Source of the DNA: Geobacter metallireducens GS-15
GTDB lineage: Bacteria > Desulfobacterota > Desulfuromonadia > Geobacterales > Geobacteraceae
DNA length: 32,000 nt
Direction of reading: 5' to 3'
Assembly (NCBI RefSeq): GCF_000012925.1
Contig: NC_007517.1
Coordinates: forward strand, 3,150,001 to 3,182,000
The position numbers and the translations under genes are program-made. Below, one piece after another: positions 8,116-27,028 of the stretch; position 1 is the stretch's first letter; each line of letters starts with the position of its first letter. The notes beneath the pieces were generated by a model. The model was not told the DNA's origin. It did not search any database and worked only from the letters and a program-made list of their open reading frames with translations.

Positions 8116-9262
8116 ATGAATGGAATTCAGGGGACACCATACTCACGGAATTCAGACAGGAATTCAGGGGACACCATACTTATCTCAGTTGAATTAGGTA
8201 TGGTGTCCCCGGAACTCCCCGTCCCCGGAACTCCCCCACACCGGTTGCGGGAGACTCTGTTGCCGATCTCGGAGTCGTCGGCTCACCCTGGCAGGGAGCC
8301 GGTACGACCAGGCAGCTTCCACCAGCATCCGTCGGGCATGGCTGTTGCCGGTCTTTGTAATCCCTCCCCGCTTGGTTGTTTCGCCGCTCGAATGCTCCGA
8401 GGGGACAAGCCCGAGATAGGCCATTAACTGCCGGGGGTGATCGAATCGGCTCAAGTCACCGAGTTCCGCGACGGTCGTCACGGCAACCACCAGAGAGACA
8501 CCGCGCAATGCTTGGAGTGCTTCAACCACCGGACCAACGCGCCACTGCGTGACGAGCTGCCGAATCTGCTCTGTGAAGCGATCGATGCGTTCGCTACAGG
8601 CCCTCACCGCATCGACGTATTCCTGGAGCGTGATCTGCTGGGCCGGGTGCGGCATTTTAATGTCAGAGATCCAGCGCCAGTGGGCGAGGCTCCATAGGGT
8701 TTTGCCGCTGTAGCGAACCCCGCTGCGCAACAGGAATGCATTGAGCTGCTGCCGCGCTTTGCGTTCCGCGCTCTTGGCATCCTCTCGGGCACGGGAGAGG
8801 TCCCGCATCGCTTCGTCCTCAACGTGAGGCACGTAGACCGGCGTCAGTTCGCCAGCCCGGTGCAAACGGGCCAGCATCTCGGCATCCCGTCGGTCGTTCT
8901 TGATCCGGTTGCCGCTCTTCTTCGGGATCAGCGACGGCGCAACCACGATGCAGTCGAACCCCTGTCGGGTCAGGTGACGATAAATCTCATAGCCGCATGG
9001 CCCGGCTTCGTACACAAAATGAAGCTCGCGTCCTTGGGAGACCAGCTTCCGCACGACTTTGTCCAAGGAGTGCAGGTCGCCACCGACGCTTCCATAGTGG
9101 CGGACTTCATTGTCTCGCCCCCAATCGGCAAGAGCTATTTCGATGGAGTTCTTGTGAACATCAAGCCCGACATACGTGATAGACTTTTCCATGACCTGCC
9201 TCCTTGGTTGTGGCTCTGTACTGGTGGTTTCCCATCTCCAGCATAACCCACGTTTCCGCAAG
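8116..9262 (-). mobile_element. IS110-family insertion sequence; boundaries approximate
   Basis: Contains the DEDD-type transposase gene. The short non-coding ends carry repeats: a 22-mer x2 at 8122-8143 and 8159-8180, its inverted 13-mer at 8198-8210, and tandem 16-mers at 8205-8236. It lies between the stop of cassette 5 (9274) and the start of the methyltransferase cassette (8095), where an attC is expected. Confidence 0.6.
8194..9192 (-). CDS. IS110-family transposase (DEDD N-terminal domain plus Transposase_20-like C-terminal domain)
   Basis: ORF 8194..9261. Start at MEKSITYVGLDVHKNSIEIAL (9192) with AAGGAGG upstream. Also has EAGPCGYEIYR...VAPSLIP...KNDRRDA and GVSLVVAVTTVAELGD...LMAYLGLVPSEHSSG...GGITKTGNSHARR, typical of the IS110 family. 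Confidence 0.9.
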   Translation of the reverse strand: MEKSITYVGLDVHKNSIEIALADWGRDNEVRHYGSVGGDLHSLDKVVRKLVSQGRELHFVYEAGPCGYEIYRHLTRQGFDCIVVAPSLIPKKSGNRIKNDRRDAEMLARLHRAGELTPVYVPHVEDEAMRDLSRAREDAKSAERKARQQLNAFLLRSGVRYSGKTLWSLAHWRWISDIKMPHPAQQITLQEYVDAVRACSERIDRFTEQIRQLVTQWRVGPVVEALQALRGVSLVVAVTTVAELGDLSRFDHPRQLMAYLGLVPSEHSSGETTKRGGITKTGNSHARRMLVEAAWSYRLPARVSRRLRDRQQSLPQPVWGSSGDGEFRGHHT

Positions 9263-11583: not shown

Positions 11584-11840
11584 TCCCAAGTGACATTGGC
11601 ACCCATCGAAGTCTGGCAGGCATCCTTTATTGCTTGGATTGAGTTCAGATAAGCGCTGAAAAAGTAGTTGAGCCTGTCTAGCTCAATGTTGATAGGGTAG
11701 TTCTGGGCGACATGCTTTCGTTCGATGATCCTTGAGACCCCAACAATCTGGTCTAGAAAAAAGCCCATTTCCCCTATCTTACCGCTCAAATTACTGGCGA
11801 CTGCAATTCGGTGTCGCTGCATTTATGCGTCCTCGATCCC

Positions 11841-11901
11841 TCATAACGGGTTACCGCTGAGCCGCGAGCGTCAGCGAGGCGGCTCTAGTGGTGTGTTGGG
11901 T
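11841..11901 (-). other. attC site of cassette 4
   Basis: Minus strand: ACCCAAC-AC-ACCACTAGAGCCGC-CTCGCTGACGCTC-GCGGCTCAGCGGT-AACCC-GTTATGA, 61 nt. R'' fits RYYYAAC perfectly. The stem is near-perfect with one bulged base. R'' and the 5' arm overlap the last codons and stop of the cassette gene, as is common for cassettes. Confidence 0.6.
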
Positions 11902-12596
11902 GTCGCCTTATGAATCATGAAGCCTACAACTGCATTATCAATGACCTTACTCTCGCTCGTATTCCAGGGACTTCCTTGGAACCTATGAATTGCCTCTGCA
12001 TTTCGTCTCGCAATTTCAGCCATTGCTGTGAACATTTCGATGAATGCTCTCTCCTCCGGGATGCTGAGGCTCTTTCTGTCATAGAAAAAATTGAAAGTGT
12101 ACTCTCGATCAATCGGAGGAAGCAGACAAGGAATAACATGATGCAAGGCTTTTGAATTCGCTACAATCTGTGCTTCGGCAATGCTTACTCTCAAGGAAGT
12201 TAGAACCCTCCAGACCTTTTCTGCAGTCTTTCGAATATTCTCTCGCGGAAGAGTTAACAACGACAACTTTGAGAGGTCTGAAATGGCTTGTAATTGCAGA
12301 TTAAAGCTTTCCTTTATCTCTTCAATGTCTCGCAACTTCGCGTTGCCCGGCCCCATTCGGTGCAGCCCCCAGGATGTGAGCGTTGCGTATAGATATTCGA
12401 AAAAAGTGTGATCGGCAAACAGTGCTTCTATCGACGGAGCGTCATTTCTTGCTTGGATTGTTTTTTCATGGAAATACCAGCAAGGGCCTGTAAAGCGGCC
12501 ACTTTGGGTAAAAACTGTCACGTAAGAATCGAAATCAGCTACCAACTCCTCGACTCTAGTTGCAATTCTTGCAGTGACCTTCTCGCTACTTCCCAT
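11871..12596 (-). CDS. hypothetical protein (cassette 4), 241 aa, no family recognised
   Basis: ORF 11871..12632. Start taken at MGSSEKV (12596), because the longer form would read through the attC R' box. AT-rich. Bounded by attC sites on both sides. Confidence 0.75.
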   Translation of the reverse strand: MGSSEKVTARIATRVEELVADFDSYVTVFTQSGRFTGPCWYFHEKTIQARNDAPSIEALFADHTFFEYLYATLTSWGLHRMGPGNAKLRDIEEIKESFNLQLQAISDLSKLSLLTLPRENIRKTAEKVWRVLTSLRVSIAEAQIVANSKALHHVIPCLLPPIDREYTFNFFYDRKSLSIPEERAFIEMFTAMAEIARRNAEAIHRFQGSPWNTSESKVIDNAVVGFMIHKATPNTPLEPPR

Positions 12597-12611: not shown

Positions 12612-12674
12612 ACCCAACGTCACAAGGCGCACCGGCGAAGCGTAGCGGAGACCGCGTGCCGCCGCATGTTGGCA
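12612..12674 (-). other. attC site of cassette 3
   Basis: Minus strand, starting immediately after the TGA stop: TGCCAAC-(49 nt GC-rich imperfect palindrome)-GTTGGGT, 63 nt. R' fits GTTRRRY perfectly. CCAAC pairs with GTTGG. The next start codon is 16 nt downstream of R'. Confidence 0.6.
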
Positions 12675-14738
12675 TCATCTCTTCGCCTTCTCTTCAAGAA
12701 TTTCGTCGATATGTCTGAATACAAGGCCACTTAAAGGGTTGAGAACCATATCAAAAAGCGGGTTAGCAACAATTTGGATGCCCTTCTTCAAATATCTAGA
12801 CAAAAATAAATCAAATTCATGGTCCGTTTTCAGGATCTCTATTTTATATTCTGGCAGTTCTATCCCAGCTTTAGACCAGTTAGATAAGTATGTTTTTAAT
12901 TTTAATGGATTATTTAAAATAAATATTGCGTTTTCAATTATAATTGGCTGACTAGTTTCTAAATCTAGTAATATAAATAGAGGAGCATAGTAATTTGTGA
13001 AGCGATCATAGGCTTTTTCAATCGCTAGTGTGTATTTCACTGCTTCAGCATCAATGCATTCAATACACTCTTCATCCTCATCTTTCATCTTTATAGCAAC
13101 CGAGTAAGAGCTAAATGTTTCATTATTTGAAGTATAACAACTGGGATCGCCTTTAATCCTGGCCTTCTCGAATTGCATGTTAAAAAAATCTGCTCTTTTT
13201 GTAGCAGACTCCAGCGTTTCTCTCACTACCTTGCTACGATGATGAACATATTTCGAGCTTCCATCTTCAAGGTTGATTTTTACACAGTAATTACCTTTAA
13301 ATTCACCATGCCCTTCAGGGTTCCACCCCATAAACATAATCTGATTTAGCTTGCCCTCCAAAGATCCAAACATAGCTTGTCCGGTTTGGATAAACTCAAA
13401 CCACGTTTTGTAGTCAAAATCTTTCAAATAATCATACTCGTCAAACACTTCGGCCTTGATTCCCCCCAAGACTCTATCTAGTGGACTTAAGCATTTTTTG
13501 TGAACAAGCCCCAGAGCATGCTCTGCTCCGATCTCGTCAATCTCCACTAAGGGCGCACCATTTTCTGAAATGGAGTCCCCGCAGTGGAGGCATCTTAAAG
13601 GTTGATCATTGCCTTTTCGGATGTCCTCGCAATAGTCGCCATAAGCAAGTGCGAATGGTGAATTCTCAATATCCTCCTCAGTATTTATGGGCAAGAAGCC
13701 GATGTTCTTGTCTTTGAATTCATCAGCGCGTTCTTCGATATATCTTTCTATACCCGAATATGTTGAAGCTCTCGACAAAACATTCCATGTACTGCCATTA
13801 AGCAACTCACATAAGTTGTCGTGAAACTTAACTTTTTTGCTACCAGAATCATCAAATCTGATTAATTCAACAACTAAAAAGTCCTGGCCGTCAATAAATG
13901 ACTCAACGAGGAGAACCTCTCTTCCGCTAGAAATTTTACCGGGGCTCATTTCGATCTTAAAAAAATCCTGTTCCACCGCATGTTTTTTTTCGGGAGTTAA
14001 CGTGCCTATATAATTTCCAAGCTTGGATTCAAGGCCGGATTTGTTTATTGATTGTCTAGCGGATGCTAAAGAGAGGGCTAAAGAAATAGTAGCTGAGAAA
14101 AATAGTTCGGGCTTAACTCTGCTCTTGCTTGTGAGAATAGTAAGAATTGCACCCTCAAGAGGCATGCCTTGCTGTACATCAGCAATGGCAACATACGTTT
14201 TACTCAAAATGTCAGATATGGTTGTGTCAGCTATATTATTATTTGTAATTTCTAGGTATGACGTACTGATACAATTCTTTACCTTGGTATATACGTCTTC
14301 TTCAGATTTATTAAGTGGGTTGTCTTTAAAGCCAGTATCATTTAACCGGATACTTTCTAAAATCTTTCGAAGCTCTTGCTTGATTTTTGATGATGAACCT
14401 GAAGATGTTGCCAGAACAAATTTATGTCCACCAGATGGGTCCTGTAAAAATTGATTTACAAATTGATGAACAGTTTTCATAAATTCTGAGTCTGAACTAT
14501 CAGACATACTAATGTTACGTTTTGCCTGGACGTACAAATTGCCTGTAGTCGTTTTTACAACCATATCATCAACATATGACGAAGATTCAAAGGAAACTTC
14601 TGTAATGGCATGAACTCCATCTAGTCCAATCCCTGACAATGTTTCTATGTCAAGTAGCATTTGGATCAAAAAGTAAGCTGCAAGTCTTTGTTGATAATCA
14701 ATCCCTGTATTAGTTGCTGCTCCGCCACCATTTGACAT
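12675..14738 (-). CDS. 687-aa protein (cassette 3): N-terminal DUF4297/Cap4-like PD-(D/E)xK nuclease motif followed by a large uncharacterised region
   Basis: ORF 12675..14840. Start taken at MSNGGGAATNTGIDYQQ (14738), because the upstream 34 codons run through the GC-rich attC. N-terminus: GIDYQQRLAAYFLIQML...EVSFESSSYVDDMVVKTTTGNLYVQAKR, an E...DD...QxK arrangement as I recall for DUF4297. Very AT-rich, uninterrupted 2 kb frame. Confidence 0.85.
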   Translation of the reverse strand: MSNGGGAATNTGIDYQQRLAAYFLIQMLLDIETLSGIGLDGVHAITEVSFESSSYVDDMVVKTTTGNLYVQAKRNISMSDSSDSEFMKTVHQFVNQFLQDPSGGHKFVLATSSGSSSKIKQELRKILESIRLNDTGFKDNPLNKSEEDVYTKVKNCISTSYLEITNNNIADTTISDILSKTYVAIADVQQGMPLEGAILTILTSKSRVKPELFFSATISLALSLASARQSINKSGLESKLGNYIGTLTPEKKHAVEQDFFKIEMSPGKISSGREVLLVESFIDGQDFLVVELIRFDDSGSKKVKFHDNLCELLNGSTWNVLSRASTYSGIERYIEERADEFKDKNIGFLPINTEEDIENSPFALAYGDYCEDIRKGNDQPLRCLHCGDSISENGAPLVEIDEIGAEHALGLVHKKCLSPLDRVLGGIKAEVFDEYDYLKDFDYKTWFEFIQTGQAMFGSLEGKLNQIMFMGWNPEGHGEFKGNYCVKINLEDGSSKYVHHRSKVVRETLESATKRADFFNMQFEKARIKGDPSCYTSNNETFSSYSVAIKMKDEDEECIECIDAEAVKYTLAIEKAYDRFTNYYAPLFILLDLETSQPIIIENAIFILNNPLKLKTYLSNWSKAGIELPEYKIEILKTDHEFDLFLSRYLKKGIQIVANPLFDMVLNPLSGLVFRHIDEILEEKAKR

Positions 14739-14761
14739 GCGTGTTCCCTTTATTAAATTTT

Positions 14762-14834
14762 GCACAACGGCTTGCGCCCTTGACCCGCCCGGGGCGCTTC
14801 TCAGCCCCGGTCGGTGTCCAAGGGCCTGTTGGAC
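14762..14834 (-). other. attC site of cassette 2 (clearest example)
   Basis: Minus strand: GTCCAAC-AGG-CCCTTGGACACCGACCGGGGC-TGAGAAGC-GCCCCGGGCGGGTCAAGGG-CGCAAGCC-GTTGTGC, 73 nt. R'' fits RYYYAAC perfectly and R' has one mismatch to GTTRRRY. The arms pair (CCCTTG with CAAGGG, CGGGGC with GCCCCG) with extrahelical bases. It is a GC-rich island between two AT-rich genes. Confidence 0.7.
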
Positions 14835-14855
14835 GTCCATCCTGCCTGTGGATTA

Positions 14856-15299
14856 CTATCTGTATTGTCTCTCATCCTTTTGCAATTGGATTACTTCTGG
14901 ATGCAATCGGCAAAAAGAAACCAAATGATTTGTAAGTCGATCATATAAATCATCTTCAATGTAAGGAAGATCTGCCTTCTGTAGATCATTTTCTAATTCA
15001 TCTGGTGGTATGAAGTTCTTTAGCCGTGCAAGATCGTTTGCAATTTCTGCTCTTGTCTCTTTTGAAAAGCGTTCTTCGTTCCCAAGTTTATTTTGAAGGA
15101 AATCAATAAACATCTCAAAACTGTAGTCCCAATTTATGTTTCCATTTTCCTGGGCCTCCCACCGTAGTTTCTCGATGGCACGAAGAATTTCTCCTTGAAC
15201 AGTGTCGGCTTGTCCGGACTTGGGCACAAGATTCTTCCAAATCCACCGTGCTATTTCGAAATCGGAATCAGTGAGATCGATAAAGTTTTTTTCTGTCAT
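14856..15299 (-). CDS. hypothetical acidic protein (cassette 2), 147 aa
   Basis: ORF 14856..15314. ATG at 15299 (MTEKNFIDL) is preferred over the upstream TTG, which is part of a GTTGGAC box. AT-rich. No family recognised. Confidence 0.7.
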   Translation of the reverse strand: MTEKNFIDLTDSDFEIARWIWKNLVPKSGQADTVQGEILRAIEKLRWEAQENGNINWDYSFEMFIDFLQNKLGNEERFSKETRAEIANDLARLKNFIPPDELENDLQKADLPYIEDDLYDRLTNHLVSFCRLHPEVIQLQKDERQYR

Positions 15300-15337
15300 G
15301 TTTTCCTCGTCCAACTCATTATTGAGCAGTTAGAGTC

Positions 15338-15403
15338 TGGTTTATGACAATATAAACATGTTTCTAGTATTAGAAATAAGTTTATATATCCATAAACCTC
15401 CAT
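15338..15403. repeat. AT-rich imperfect palindrome between cassettes 1 and 2
   Basis: GGTTTATGACAATATAAAC (15338-15356) and GTTTATATATCCATAAACC (15385-15403) are reverse complements apart from 3 central bases, with a 28-nt spacer. A perfect GTTRRRY box (GTTGGAC on the minus strand, 15309-15315) lies just before the next start codon. Confidence 0.5.
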
Positions 15404-15948: not shown

Positions 15949-17298
15949 ATGATTCAAGTCCCGCGTGATACGATGGCCCGGTTCGAGGCTGTTCTCAAGA
16001 GGAAGGGAATGCCGCTCGGCAGCTTTGGGGATTACAGGAAATGGCTGCGCTATTATTTCGATTTTTCGTCAAAATATCCTGAATCTCGAGGCAGGTCTGA
16101 ACAGGTTCGCAAGTTTCTGGAAAAGTTGCGTGACAAGAATCAGTCCGAGGCACAACGAAGACAGGCGGCCCATGCGATCTCACTGTATTTTGAGATGCAG
16201 CGGGAGGAGGAGCCGCCGCAGTGTAATGAAATTCCATCCTCTCCTCCCCAACGATCAACCTGTATTGTTCCACAGTCTCCTCCCCGTCAACGCAAATCAT
16301 ATTACTCCGAGGCCGGCTATCAGGAAAAATCCGATTCCCCCGAATGGGACGAGGTGCTGGGCAAACTGGCGGCCGAGATCAAGGTGCGCCACTATTCCCG
16401 CAAGACCCTGAAAACCTACGCCTTATGGTCGCGAAAATTTCAGCGGTTCCTGAAGAACAAGCCTCCGCAAGAGCTTTCAACCGCCGATGTGAAGGAGTAC
16501 CTGACCTACCTGGCGGTAAAGTGCAATGTCGCGGCTTCGACCCAGAACCAGGCGTTCAATTCGCTGCTATTCCTCTTCCGCCACGGTTTGAAGCGGGAAT
16601 TCGGCGAACTGCGCGATGTGCCGCGGGCGAAGAAGTCCCTGTATGTGCCGGTGGTGCTCTCCCGCGAGGAGATCGACGCCATTCTGAAGCATCTGTCCCA
16701 TCCGTTCAGCCTGGTGGTGAACCTGCTCTTCGGCTGCGGCCTGAGGCTGTTCGAGTGTCTGCAGTTGCGGGTGCGGGATTTCAATTTCGATGCCGTCGTC
16801 CTGACGGTGCATGGCAAGGGGAAAAAGGACCGGACCGTGCCGCTGCCGGAGGCGATCCTTCCGGAGCTGACGGCACAGATTGAACGGGTGAAGGCTTTAC
16901 ACGAAAAGGATCTTGCAGCGGGATACGCGGGGGTGTTCCTCGACGACGCCGTGGAGAAGAAGTATCCCCATGCCCCGAAGGAGCTGATCCACCAGTGGTT
17001 CTTTCCGCAGCAGTCGTTGACGCTGGTGGAGGAAACCGGGGAACTGAGACGCTATCATCTCCACGAGTCCCTGTTGCAGGAGGCTCTGTACGTGGCCGTG
17101 CGCAGGGCGAAGATACCCAAGCGGGTCACGGCCCACACCTTCCGGCATTCCTACGCGACCCACCTCTTGCAAGCCAATTACGATATCCGCACCATCCAGA
17201 CCAAGCTGGGACACGCAAGCCTCAAAACAACCATGATCTATACCCACTGCGTGCCGGTCCGGACGGTGAAGGAGGCGAAAAGCCCGCTGGATTTCTAG
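15949..17298 (+). CDS. intI: integron integrase (IntI-type tyrosine recombinase) with a ~130-aa N-terminal extension
   Basis: 449 aa. Catalytic residues are in place: GCGLRLFECLQLR (Arg), HGKGKKDR (Lys), HTFRHSYATHLL (His-x-x-Arg), MIYTHC (Tyr). It carries the IntI-specific insertion between patches II and III: GVFLDDAVEKKYPHAPKELIHQWFFPQQSLTLVEETGELRRYHLHESLLQ. From memory, IntI1 has LPDALERKYPRAG..W.WFWVF........SG..RRHH at this position. DIRTIQTKLGH...TTMIYTH also matches. Confidence 0.85.
   Translation: MIQVPRDTMARFEAVLKRKGMPLGSFGDYRKWLRYYFDFSSKYPESRGRSEQVRKFLEKLRDKNQSEAQRRQAAHAISLYFEMQREEEPPQCNEIPSSPPQRSTCIVPQSPPRQRKSYYSEAGYQEKSDSPEWDEVLGKLAAEIKVRHYSRKTLKTYALWSRKFQRFLKNKPPQELSTADVKEYLTYLAVKCNVAASTQNQAFNSLLFLFRHGLKREFGELRDVPRAKKSLYVPVVLSREEIDAILKHLSHPFSLVVNLLFGCGLRLFECLQLRVRDFNFDAVVLTVHGKGKKDRTVPLPEAILPELTAQIERVKALHEKDLAAGYAGVFLDDAVEKKYPHAPKELIHQWFFPQQSLTLVEETGELRRYHLHESLLQEALYVAVRRAKIPKRVTAHTFRHSYATHLLQANYDIRTIQTKLGHASLKTTMIYTHCVPVRTVKEAKSPLDF

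Positions 17299-25792: not shown

Positions 25793-27028
<1,236 letters not shown>

Follow-up and report, generated by a model that had tools for sequence, protein, structure and literature searches.

We analysed a window of 32,000 nucleotides (nt) from Geobacter metallireducens GS-15 (contig NC_007517.1, positions 3,150,001–3,182,000 of the forward strand) and found that one gene on its reverse strand, 12675–14738, probably encodes a self-contained, single-protein defence system of the abortive-infection type that is carried as an integron cassette. The gene is an integron cassette, is intact and is under purifying selection, although all sources label its product of 687 amino acids (aa) a 'hypothetical protein'. 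Its N-terminal part resembles the PD-(D/E)xK nucleases of Cap4 and LmuA, whereas its C-terminal module has no described relative and is found in other proteins attached to a caspase-like protease.

The Cap4-type nucleases described as effectors rely on a separate sensor, be it a cyclase with SAVED, an SMC complex, HerA or a STAND ATPase. Effector and control in one cassette-sized gene would show that a nuclease of this type can be gated without a partner. If, more specifically and more tentatively, its C-terminal module senses a phage-derived cue directly, the gene would represent a family of bacterial immune receptors new to science, each a single chain and some of them distributed as integron cassettes.

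Nuclease domain and C-terminal module

The open reading frame (ORF) is complete with its stop codon and intact, and the encoded protein is 100% identical to G. metallireducens WP_004514683.1 (ABB33018.2, UniProt Q39RV6). An alternative 721-aa reading, which starts from an ATG at 14840 and passes through the upstream attC site, is public as WP_261974690.1. Its extra part has no counterpart in an 89%-identical homologue from a Geoanaerobacter metagenome-assembled genome (MAG), whose similarity to the window begins ~ 25 nt before the ATG at 14738, so the 687-aa start is the right one. A Shine-Dalgarno-like motif, AAGGGA, lies upstream of this ATG. Comparison with the same homologue gave a ratio of non-synonymous to synonymous substitution rates (dN/dS) of 0.10 for the whole gene (N-terminal part, 0.06; C-terminal part, 0.13). 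The parts of the protein and their window coordinates are as follows:

14004–14738, reverse strand: nuclease core and helical subdomain (residues 1–245), PD-(D/E)xK nuclease of the Cap4/LmuA type by PADLOC and Foldseek
13953–14003, reverse strand: linker (residues 246–262), predicted to be disordered, point of effector exchange; predicted local distance difference test (pLDDT) below 50 for residues 245–263
12678–13952, reverse strand: C-terminal module (residues 263–687, ~ 425 aa), no described relative, proposed regulator or sensor
13491–13592, reverse strand: CLHCG...EIDE...VHKKC (residues 383–416) with the spacing C-x2-C ... H-x2-C; RCLHCGD at residue 382, HKKC at residue 413

The assignment of residues 1–245 to the Cap4-like PD-(D/E)xK nucleases is supported at the level of profile and fold. 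In PADLOC, residues 2–241 matched the candidate defence protein PDC-M54A (E = 8e-31, profile positions 10–257 of 1,621) and residues 10–242 matched LmuA in its nuclease half only (E = 1.1e-7, profile positions 13–229 of 373), while a weak match to HamA (E = 3e-4) covered residues 2–76. An AlphaFold2 model of the full protein, built on 46 homologues, had a pLDDT of 85 and a predicted template modelling score (pTM) of 0.75. When it was compared with the Protein Data Bank (PDB) using Foldseek, Cap4 (7yia, E = 1.4e-5; 6wam, E = 9.5e-5), LmuA (9hr5_C, E = 1.9e-5) and HerA-DUF4297 (9c1m_G, E = 7e-4) were returned with a probability of 1.00 each; further matches were Cap4 6vm5 and LmuA 9uxh_C. Each of the matches covers ~ 250–310 columns, in the N-terminal part only. 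The motifs that had suggested a nuclease in the first place were located at residue 12 (GIDYQQR...) and residue 47 (EVSFESSSYVDDMVV...QAKR). Within this domain G12, Q16, Q17, R18, E51, D57, D58, Q71 and K73 are invariant in the 46 full-length homologues, and E51, D57, D58, Q71 and K73 are invariant in a 25-sequence set as well. By position, K73 would be the equivalent of K74 in Cap4 and K57 in LmuA.

A domain of this kind is also seen on a Streptomyces glaucescens plasmid, pSglau1, where a 1,562-aa 'ATP-binding protein' (locus L073, 5857–10545), encoded next to a tyrosine recombinase and an IS5 element, opens with a nuclease-like domain (tblastn E = 4e-9). It is probably a giant of the PDC-M54A kind and, as such, would be more evidence that this nuclease subtype is reused as an effector head.

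The C-terminal module, modelled alone with AlphaFold2, reached a pLDDT of 90. Foldseek found no significant match to it in the PDB (best E = 0.85), where the Cap4 SAVED structures were among those searched and none of them was matched, or among the predicted viral structures of BFVD (best E = 0.046), and searches of Pfam (with 46 members), NCBIfam and PHROGs gave no match. The original prediction of a remainder of unknown sequence therefore holds for these ~ 425 residues. A SAVED-like internal duplication in the alpha/beta region of the module was considered and rejected, as hhalign comparison of six sub-domain profiles gave a best probability of 4.5%.

The possible zinc knuckle noted in the same prediction (RCLHCGD ... 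HKKC) is borne out by its conservation: C383, C386, E399, H413 and C416 are invariant in the 46 sequences and are conserved in a caspase-type relative too. C383, C386, H413 and C416 probably form a structural zinc site of the treble-clef or zinc-ribbon type. Pfam searches with segments of this region from 8 members at E ≤ 10 gave faint matches to small zinc-ribbon or RING-like domains only. An HNH or His-Me nuclease in the zinc region, which the likeness of the CLHCG...EIDE...VHKKC motif to the HNH layout had suggested, was rejected as unsupported: Pfam gave no HNH match at that threshold, and the Foldseek matches to Slx1, HNH and homing endonucleases were all non-significant (E = 0.4 to 1.5). 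The second cysteine cluster, EECIECID at residue 556, had to be given up. Its cysteines are outside the lists of invariant and near-invariant residues, distant members read EEIVEIV at this place, and it is probably not a metal site.

A profile of residues 262–687 retrieved 353 proteins among 1.84 billion representatives; some 350 protein clusters at 50% identity that are without a family assignment would gain a name. Full-length homologues are found in Desulfobacterota, Alpha-, Beta- and Gammaproteobacteria, Campylobacterota, Cyanobacteria, Actinomycetota, Bacteroidota and Bacillota, a patchy distribution over at least eight phyla without synteny. As a full-length family, these proteins are absent from PADLOC-DB v2. 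Phage-borne relatives were sought and rejected, since tblastn against 50,697 phage records and the PHROG search returned nothing.

Most of the module-bearing proteins share the architecture of the window protein, but some have a different N-terminus with caspase motifs (..FAGHG.. and ..SDSCYSG..). More than 60 such proteins carry a precomputed PF00656 (Peptidase_C14) assignment and are named 'caspase family protein' in the sources. In one of them, P0139, the N-terminus aligns with metacaspase-4 over the SGHG and DSCxSG motifs. BLASTP aligned the window protein with P0139 at 29% identity over 446 residues (242–687, E = 7e-72), with all invariant C-terminal motifs retained and no similarity in the N-terminal part; the similarity starts at about residue 242–268, which coincides with the disordered linker. 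All fetched proteins with the full module comprised 189 of the nuclease type, 65 of the caspase type, one with a divergent caspase and 16 with short N-termini. The 142 proteins newly fetched from the top-150 representatives (the best 150 of the 353 matches to the C-terminal module) included 114 of the nuclease type, 10 of the caspase type, 17 with short N-termini that are probably fragments, and one divergent caspase.

No available argument for regarding the module as a regulator or sensor, and not as a part of the catalytic apparatus of the nuclease, is stronger than its union with two executioner domains that are unrelated to each other. Lamassu LmuA, the effectors of the cyclic oligonucleotide-based antiphage signalling systems (CBASS) and Avs effectors follow this pattern of a constant module with differing executioners (PMC12663957). 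The built-in sensor that had been proposed from the window protein thereby gains independent support from the presence of the same tail on a caspase-like protease, although its sensing role is still something that we infer. A module shared by nuclease and protease would mean the same sensor with two read-outs and points to an undescribed sensing fold.

An additional C-terminal extension of ~ 80 aa is present in 56 of the 65 caspase-type proteins and in 27 of the 189 nuclease-type ones (for example P0139, P0274 and P0172; loci L077 and L080) and is missing from the window protein. Its consensus, roughly NPxWKxGDxVxVxFP...GxLLxDE...RxVIFxPxExGK, suggests a small domain of the SH3 or Tudor kind.

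A single-gene integron cassette

The boundaries of the cassette and the integrase of the integron are as follows:

14762–14834, reverse strand: upstream attC (73 nt, GTCCAAC ... GTTGTGC), site of the preceding cassette; hairpin z = -3.2, constrained fold -21.9 kcal/mol
12612–12674, reverse strand: downstream attC (63 nt, TGCCAAC ... GTTGGGT), beginning at the first base after the stop codon; constrained fold -11.5 kcal/mol
15949–17298, forward strand: intI, 449-aa integron integrase (TIGR02249, 368.8 bits with an NCBIfam cutoff of 265; Pfam Phage_integrase and SAM-like domains), divergent from the array

From crossover point to crossover point the cassette extends over 12618–14767, or 2,150 bp, which agrees with the ~ 2.15 kb originally estimated. 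The gene has the lowest G+C content (GC, 0.379) in the window and is its most AT-rich segment, as had been noted; GC averages 0.596 over the window. Its third-position G+C content (GC3) is 0.344, that of intI 0.722. The entire 4.4-kb cassette array, not the gene alone, is AT-rich (GC 0.422). Both attC sites lie exactly where the original prediction had placed them, but only the upstream one stands out as a hairpin when folded by itself. Without constraints, the downstream site folds no better than shuffled sequences (z about 0 to 0.8), although it has the CCAAC...GTTGG cores and occupies the same position as the attC of homologous cassettes.

The status of the gene as a cassette was settled by homologous loci that carry attC sites or IntI. 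The 89%-identical gene of the Geoanaerobacter MAG has near-identical attC-like repeats on both sides; its similarity to the window starts directly beyond the 3' end of the upstream attC, and spans the stretch from the upstream R' to the downstream R''. The copies in Thauera and Rhodocyclus have IntI less than 10 kb away and a near-identical attC after the gene, and pairs of attC sites on both sides of the gene are also found in Onishia and Pseudoalteromonas. In a crude constrained-fold test with a random-position control, an attC-like hairpin began at the stop codon in 9 of 56 loci, as against 62 of 2,924 random positions (2.1%). A covariance model of attC was abandoned, because MAFFT alignments of 11–17 attCs from related loci had no consistent register and RNAalifold gave no pairs.

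Integron integrases, one of them near a betaproteobacterial clade, are known from G. metallireducens (PMC2426708), and the 42% identity of the window IntI to those of Thauera and Rhodocyclus fits this placement. The gene would be a concrete case in favour of the recent proposal that defence genes are stored in chromosomal integrons, and one that comes from a deltaproteobacterium and not from the Vibrio model.

Several observations concern the cassette boundaries in relatives. The window gene and its 89%-identical homologue (88.5% identity at the nucleotide level) have attC sites that differ wholly beyond the R'' core (12612–12674 vs 12066–12132 of the Geoanaerobacter locus, L012), whereas the far more distant Thauera and Rhodocyclus copies have almost identical ones (L017, 6485–6551, and L018, 12059–12125), which suggests that attC can be replaced independently of the ORF. 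The attC-like repeat of the Geoanaerobacter locus occurs in just two copies in 22 kb (L012, 9912–9975 and 12066–12132), bracketing this gene, with no IntI within 10 kb. The locus was therefore rejected as a homogeneous cassette array; it looks like a lone cassette inside a defence island, comparable to a cluster of attC sites lacking integron integrases (CALIN), and not like a long array. For the Psychrobacter cibarius chromosome, the public record has no gene calls in ~ 6.2 kb directly upstream of a homologue (L076, 3759–10000); this stretch could hold a cassette array that escaped annotation, or be an RNA or repeat region.

No cyclase, SAVED domain, SMC protein, HerA or helicase is encoded in the window, in keeping with the original statement that no cyclase, SAVED sensor or SMC partner is present. 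A conserved partner gene was likewise rejected: all-against-all comparison of the 492 ORFs within 5 kb of the gene at 56 loci revealed no family common to more than three loci. Because no neighbour family is conserved and the gene recurs as a lone cassette, we consider it autonomous as a single gene, as had been suggested from its position between two attC sites.

Members of the family are found in integrons, on mobile elements and in defence islands, the context in which homologues had been expected. A Streptomyces integrative conjugative element carries one nuclease-type member as cargo, and another, on an Agrobacterium pAt plasmid, directly adjoins Hachiman and VapBC. The nuclease-type member of Pedobacter adjoins Sir2-HerA, a reverse transcriptase and AAA_15 with DUF6602, that of Guptibacillus adjoins AAA_15/21 and SIR2_2, and the Geoanaerobacter copy lies amid a PycTIR effector, a ThsC-like HIT protein, an Nhi/AbiO-like helicase and a PDC-M26A-like protein. 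One caspase-type neighbourhood contains DarT-Macro, SLATT and an SLFN helicase, another TIR, SocA_Panacea, E2-ThiF-BubE and a KAP NTPase. The association with defence genes and mobile elements is real but moderate. A MazG-like protein together with an SLFN-g3-type helicase was seen near both the Geoanaerobacter nuclease-type member (L012, 4333–7128) and a Sphingobacterium caspase-type member (L077, 15026–17588); the pair may accompany the family repeatedly in such islands, or its presence may be fortuitous.

Proposed mode of action and alternatives

We propose that residues 1–245 would act as a DNA endonuclease executioner and residues 263–687 as a family-specific regulatory or sensor module, with the flexible linker between them. 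In the resting state, the C-terminal module would hold the nuclease inactive. On detecting an infection cue, which may be a phage protein or a nucleic-acid structure, it would change its conformation or oligomerise, and two nuclease domains would be brought together into an active site that cleaves double-stranded DNA. The ensuing DNA degradation would stop the phage or mobile element from replicating, probably at the cost of the cell. Defence activity, a sensing function of the module and an activation that proceeds by oligomerisation are each what we infer, the last of these by analogy with Cap4, LmuA and HerA-DUF4297. In LmuA, a tetramer formed via the C-terminal domain is the active state and creates the active site (PMC12663957). 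In Cap4 it is oligomerisation driven by SAVED that activates the nuclease, and in DUF4297 a rearrangement driven by HerA (bioRxiv 10.1101/2024.10.24.620088). A more specific version, in which the module is a hitherto unrecognised sensor of a phage-derived cue that switches interchangeable executioners without a second messenger, NTPase or partner, appears possible to us but is held tentatively, at somewhat less than even chances.

The computational checks put forward with the original prediction all turned out in its favour. Several results weigh against the interpretation as a defence system. Pfam DUF4297 (PF14130) matched neither the window protein at E ≤ 1 nor any of 46 members at E ≤ 0.01, and Q71 stands where the (D/E)xK motif usually has an acidic residue. 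NCBIfam has no match to the window protein, and profiles of the full protein and of its N-terminal part gave only noise against PDB sequences, so that a sequence-level tie of the nuclease to solved structures was rejected. Assignment of the effector therefore rests on the PADLOC profiles and the predicted structure, and the DUF4297 nuclease originally predicted stands as a domain of the Cap4/LmuA type with invariant catalytic residues, not as a member of the Pfam family. The C-terminal module is about as conserved as the nuclease (mean column identity of 50% vs 48%) and has no hypervariable region of the kind often seen in sensors of phage proteins. Several homologues are solitary insertions amid housekeeping genes, and the 150 nearest neighbour ORFs include only a handful of recognisable defence proteins, next to transposases, recombinases and Cass2, which is associated with integrons. 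As the third ORF of its array, the gene has no signal for a promoter above chance upstream of it; expression in Geobacter would thus depend on the integron promoter. A promoter or terminator inside the cassette was rejected, as matches are no commoner there than in shuffled sequence. In the literature searched we found no paper on PDC-M54, on the accessions of this protein or on a Cap4-type nuclease in an integron cassette; the nuclease cassettes described by Darracq et al. (bioRxiv 10.1101/2024.07.02.601686) are others and do not belong to this family.

That members sit on mobile DNA, be it integrons, a conjugative element of Streptomyces or a plasmid, would also be expected of a conflict or cell-death module that is not mainly antiphage, such as an addiction or stabilisation toxin or a stress-triggered effector whose tail senses a host signal. 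Nuclease and caspase-like protease are generic executioners, and chromosomal integron arrays do carry toxin-antitoxin cassettes (Darracq et al., bioRxiv 10.1101/2024.07.02.601686). We nevertheless regard such a role as unlikely: there is no conserved antitoxin-like partner, the informative neighbours are antiviral (Hachiman, Sir2-HerA, DarTG, the Pycsar TIR effector, reverse transcriptases), and solitary chromosomal copies persist without an obvious element to stabilise.

The domain layout of the protein, one chain in which a PD-(D/E)xK domain at the N-terminus is followed by a long C-terminal part with a Cys2-His-Cys site, is also that of a standalone restriction-like endonuclease of type IV or type IIS style, whose zinc-bearing tail would read modified or unusual foreign DNA with no switch and no suicide. 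Type IV enzymes would be expected to lack a conserved methyltransferase or other partner, as is the case here, and a truncated relative from Ktedonobacter bears the UniRef name 'Restriction endonuclease type IV Mrr domain'. However, at least 65 proteins have the module joined to a caspase-like protease, and a protease needs no DNA targeting, though DNA could be its signal. Foldseek shows no likeness of the module to SRA, PUA/EVE, winged helix or other DNA readers or binders, and the closest relatives of the nuclease domain are all immune effectors under the control of a switch, which together make an enzyme of this type decidedly improbable. Finally, a housekeeping or DNA-repair nuclease or a decaying, functionless remnant, for which the bare annotation as 'hypothetical protein' and the copies amid housekeeping genes could be cited, can be practically dismissed in view of the patchy occurrence in at least eight phyla without synteny, the strongly foreign base composition, the cassette status, the lack of any match to a housekeeping family in Pfam or NCBIfam (none of which claims the protein, a point on which the original prediction had asked to be checked) and, as regards decay, the dN/dS of 0.10 and the invariant catalytic and zinc residues.

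The remainder of the array and the rest of the window contain the following features:

14856–15314, reverse strand: cassette ORF of 152 aa
15428–15811, reverse strand: cassette ORF of 127 aa
11871–12596, reverse strand: cassette ORF of 241 aa
11538–11822, reverse strand: ORF of 94 aa
9674–11490, reverse strand: IS21 element (istA/istB), immediately distal to the cassette array
8194–9261, reverse strand: IS110-family transposase, distal to the cassette array
25889–27028, forward strand: second IS110-family gene

The cassette ORFs are all on the minus strand, opposite to intI, and encode proteins of 127, 152, 687 and 241 aa in order from intI. Those of 241, 152, 127 and 94 aa gave no significant match in Pfam, NCBIfam, PADLOC or PHROGs, the sole trace being a sub-threshold match of the 127-aa protein to DUF5710. 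Between the 127-aa and 152-aa ORFs lies an AT-rich, near-perfect 60-nt hairpin (15339–15398, reverse strand, GGTTTATGG...CATAAACC, z = -5.5) without a T-run, whose polarity, with GTT at the 5' end and AAC at the 3' end, is the reverse of that of attC, so that the two ORFs may together make up one first cassette. After the 241-aa ORF there was no convincing attC, as 11815–11885 folds no better than chance. Public metagenome contigs of the locus also stop at the IS21 side of the array, and the array may have been cut off by the IS21 insertion. In the integrase, TIGR02249 covers only residues 137–448 of 449 and Pfam reports two SAM-like N-terminal stretches; the extra ~ 135 residues may be a duplicated SAM-like domain.

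Comparison with known systems

The window protein would work in the manner of Cap4, LmuA and DUF4297. It is outside CBASS, Lamassu, HerA-DUF4297, Hachiman and PDC-M54, since the defining partner or domain of each of these was looked for and not found. With Cap4 of CBASS (7YIA, 6WAM, 6VM5) it shares the nuclease fold (Foldseek E = 1.4e-5 to 1e-3, ~ 250–280 aligned columns), the conserved acidic pair and QxK lysine (K73 here; 7YIA is the K74A mutant) and the order of an N-terminal nuclease and a C-terminal regulatory domain. Unlike Cap4, it has no SAVED or CARF match, either in Pfam or by Foldseek of the C-terminal model, and sequence identity is ~ 12%. In contrast to CBASS, there is no CD-NTase in the window or at homologous loci, and no neighbour family is conserved at the 56 loci.

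LmuA of Lamassu (9HR5, 9UXH) is similar in its nuclease, by both profile and fold, and in the design of N-terminal domain, flexible linker and C-terminal domain. However, no SMC-like LmuB, LmuC or AAA partner is present in the window or conserved at homologous loci, and the C-terminal module of the window protein is larger (425 aa) and of unrelated fold. PDC-M54A, a PADLOC phage-defence candidate of ~ 1,620 aa, provides the best sequence match to the nuclease domain, but the match covers only ~ 250 of 1,621 profile positions and the remaining, ATPase-containing part of this giant is absent here.

HerA-DUF4297 (9C1M) and HamA of Hachiman have the Cap4-like nuclease fold as well, and the principle of a common nuclease with variable C-terminal domains has been noted (bioRxiv 10.1101/2024.10.24.620088). 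The window protein differs from both in having no HerA ATPase or HamB helicase as a partner; the Hachiman next to the Agrobacterium member is a complete pair and a separate system. Shedu and Upx (PMC13099982) resemble the proposed system in that one polypeptide restrains its own PD-(D/E)xK nuclease until infection, and in Upx it is a phage protein that relieves the auto-inhibition (PMC13099982). No similarity to either in sequence or fold was detected, neither was returned by the PDB search, and domain order and nuclease subfamily are different.

The Bacteroidota 'caspase family proteins', such as P0274 of Sphingobacterium and P0249 of Pedobacter, have the same ~ 425-aa module including CxxC...HxxC and are, likewise, single genes in defence islands. 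They differ from the window protein in having a caspase-like cysteine protease as the N-terminal effector and, in most cases, the ~ 80-aa C-terminal extension. We rate the product of the G. metallireducens cassette as a known class of effector combined with what appears to be a new, portable control module of undescribed fold, packaged as one mobile gene.

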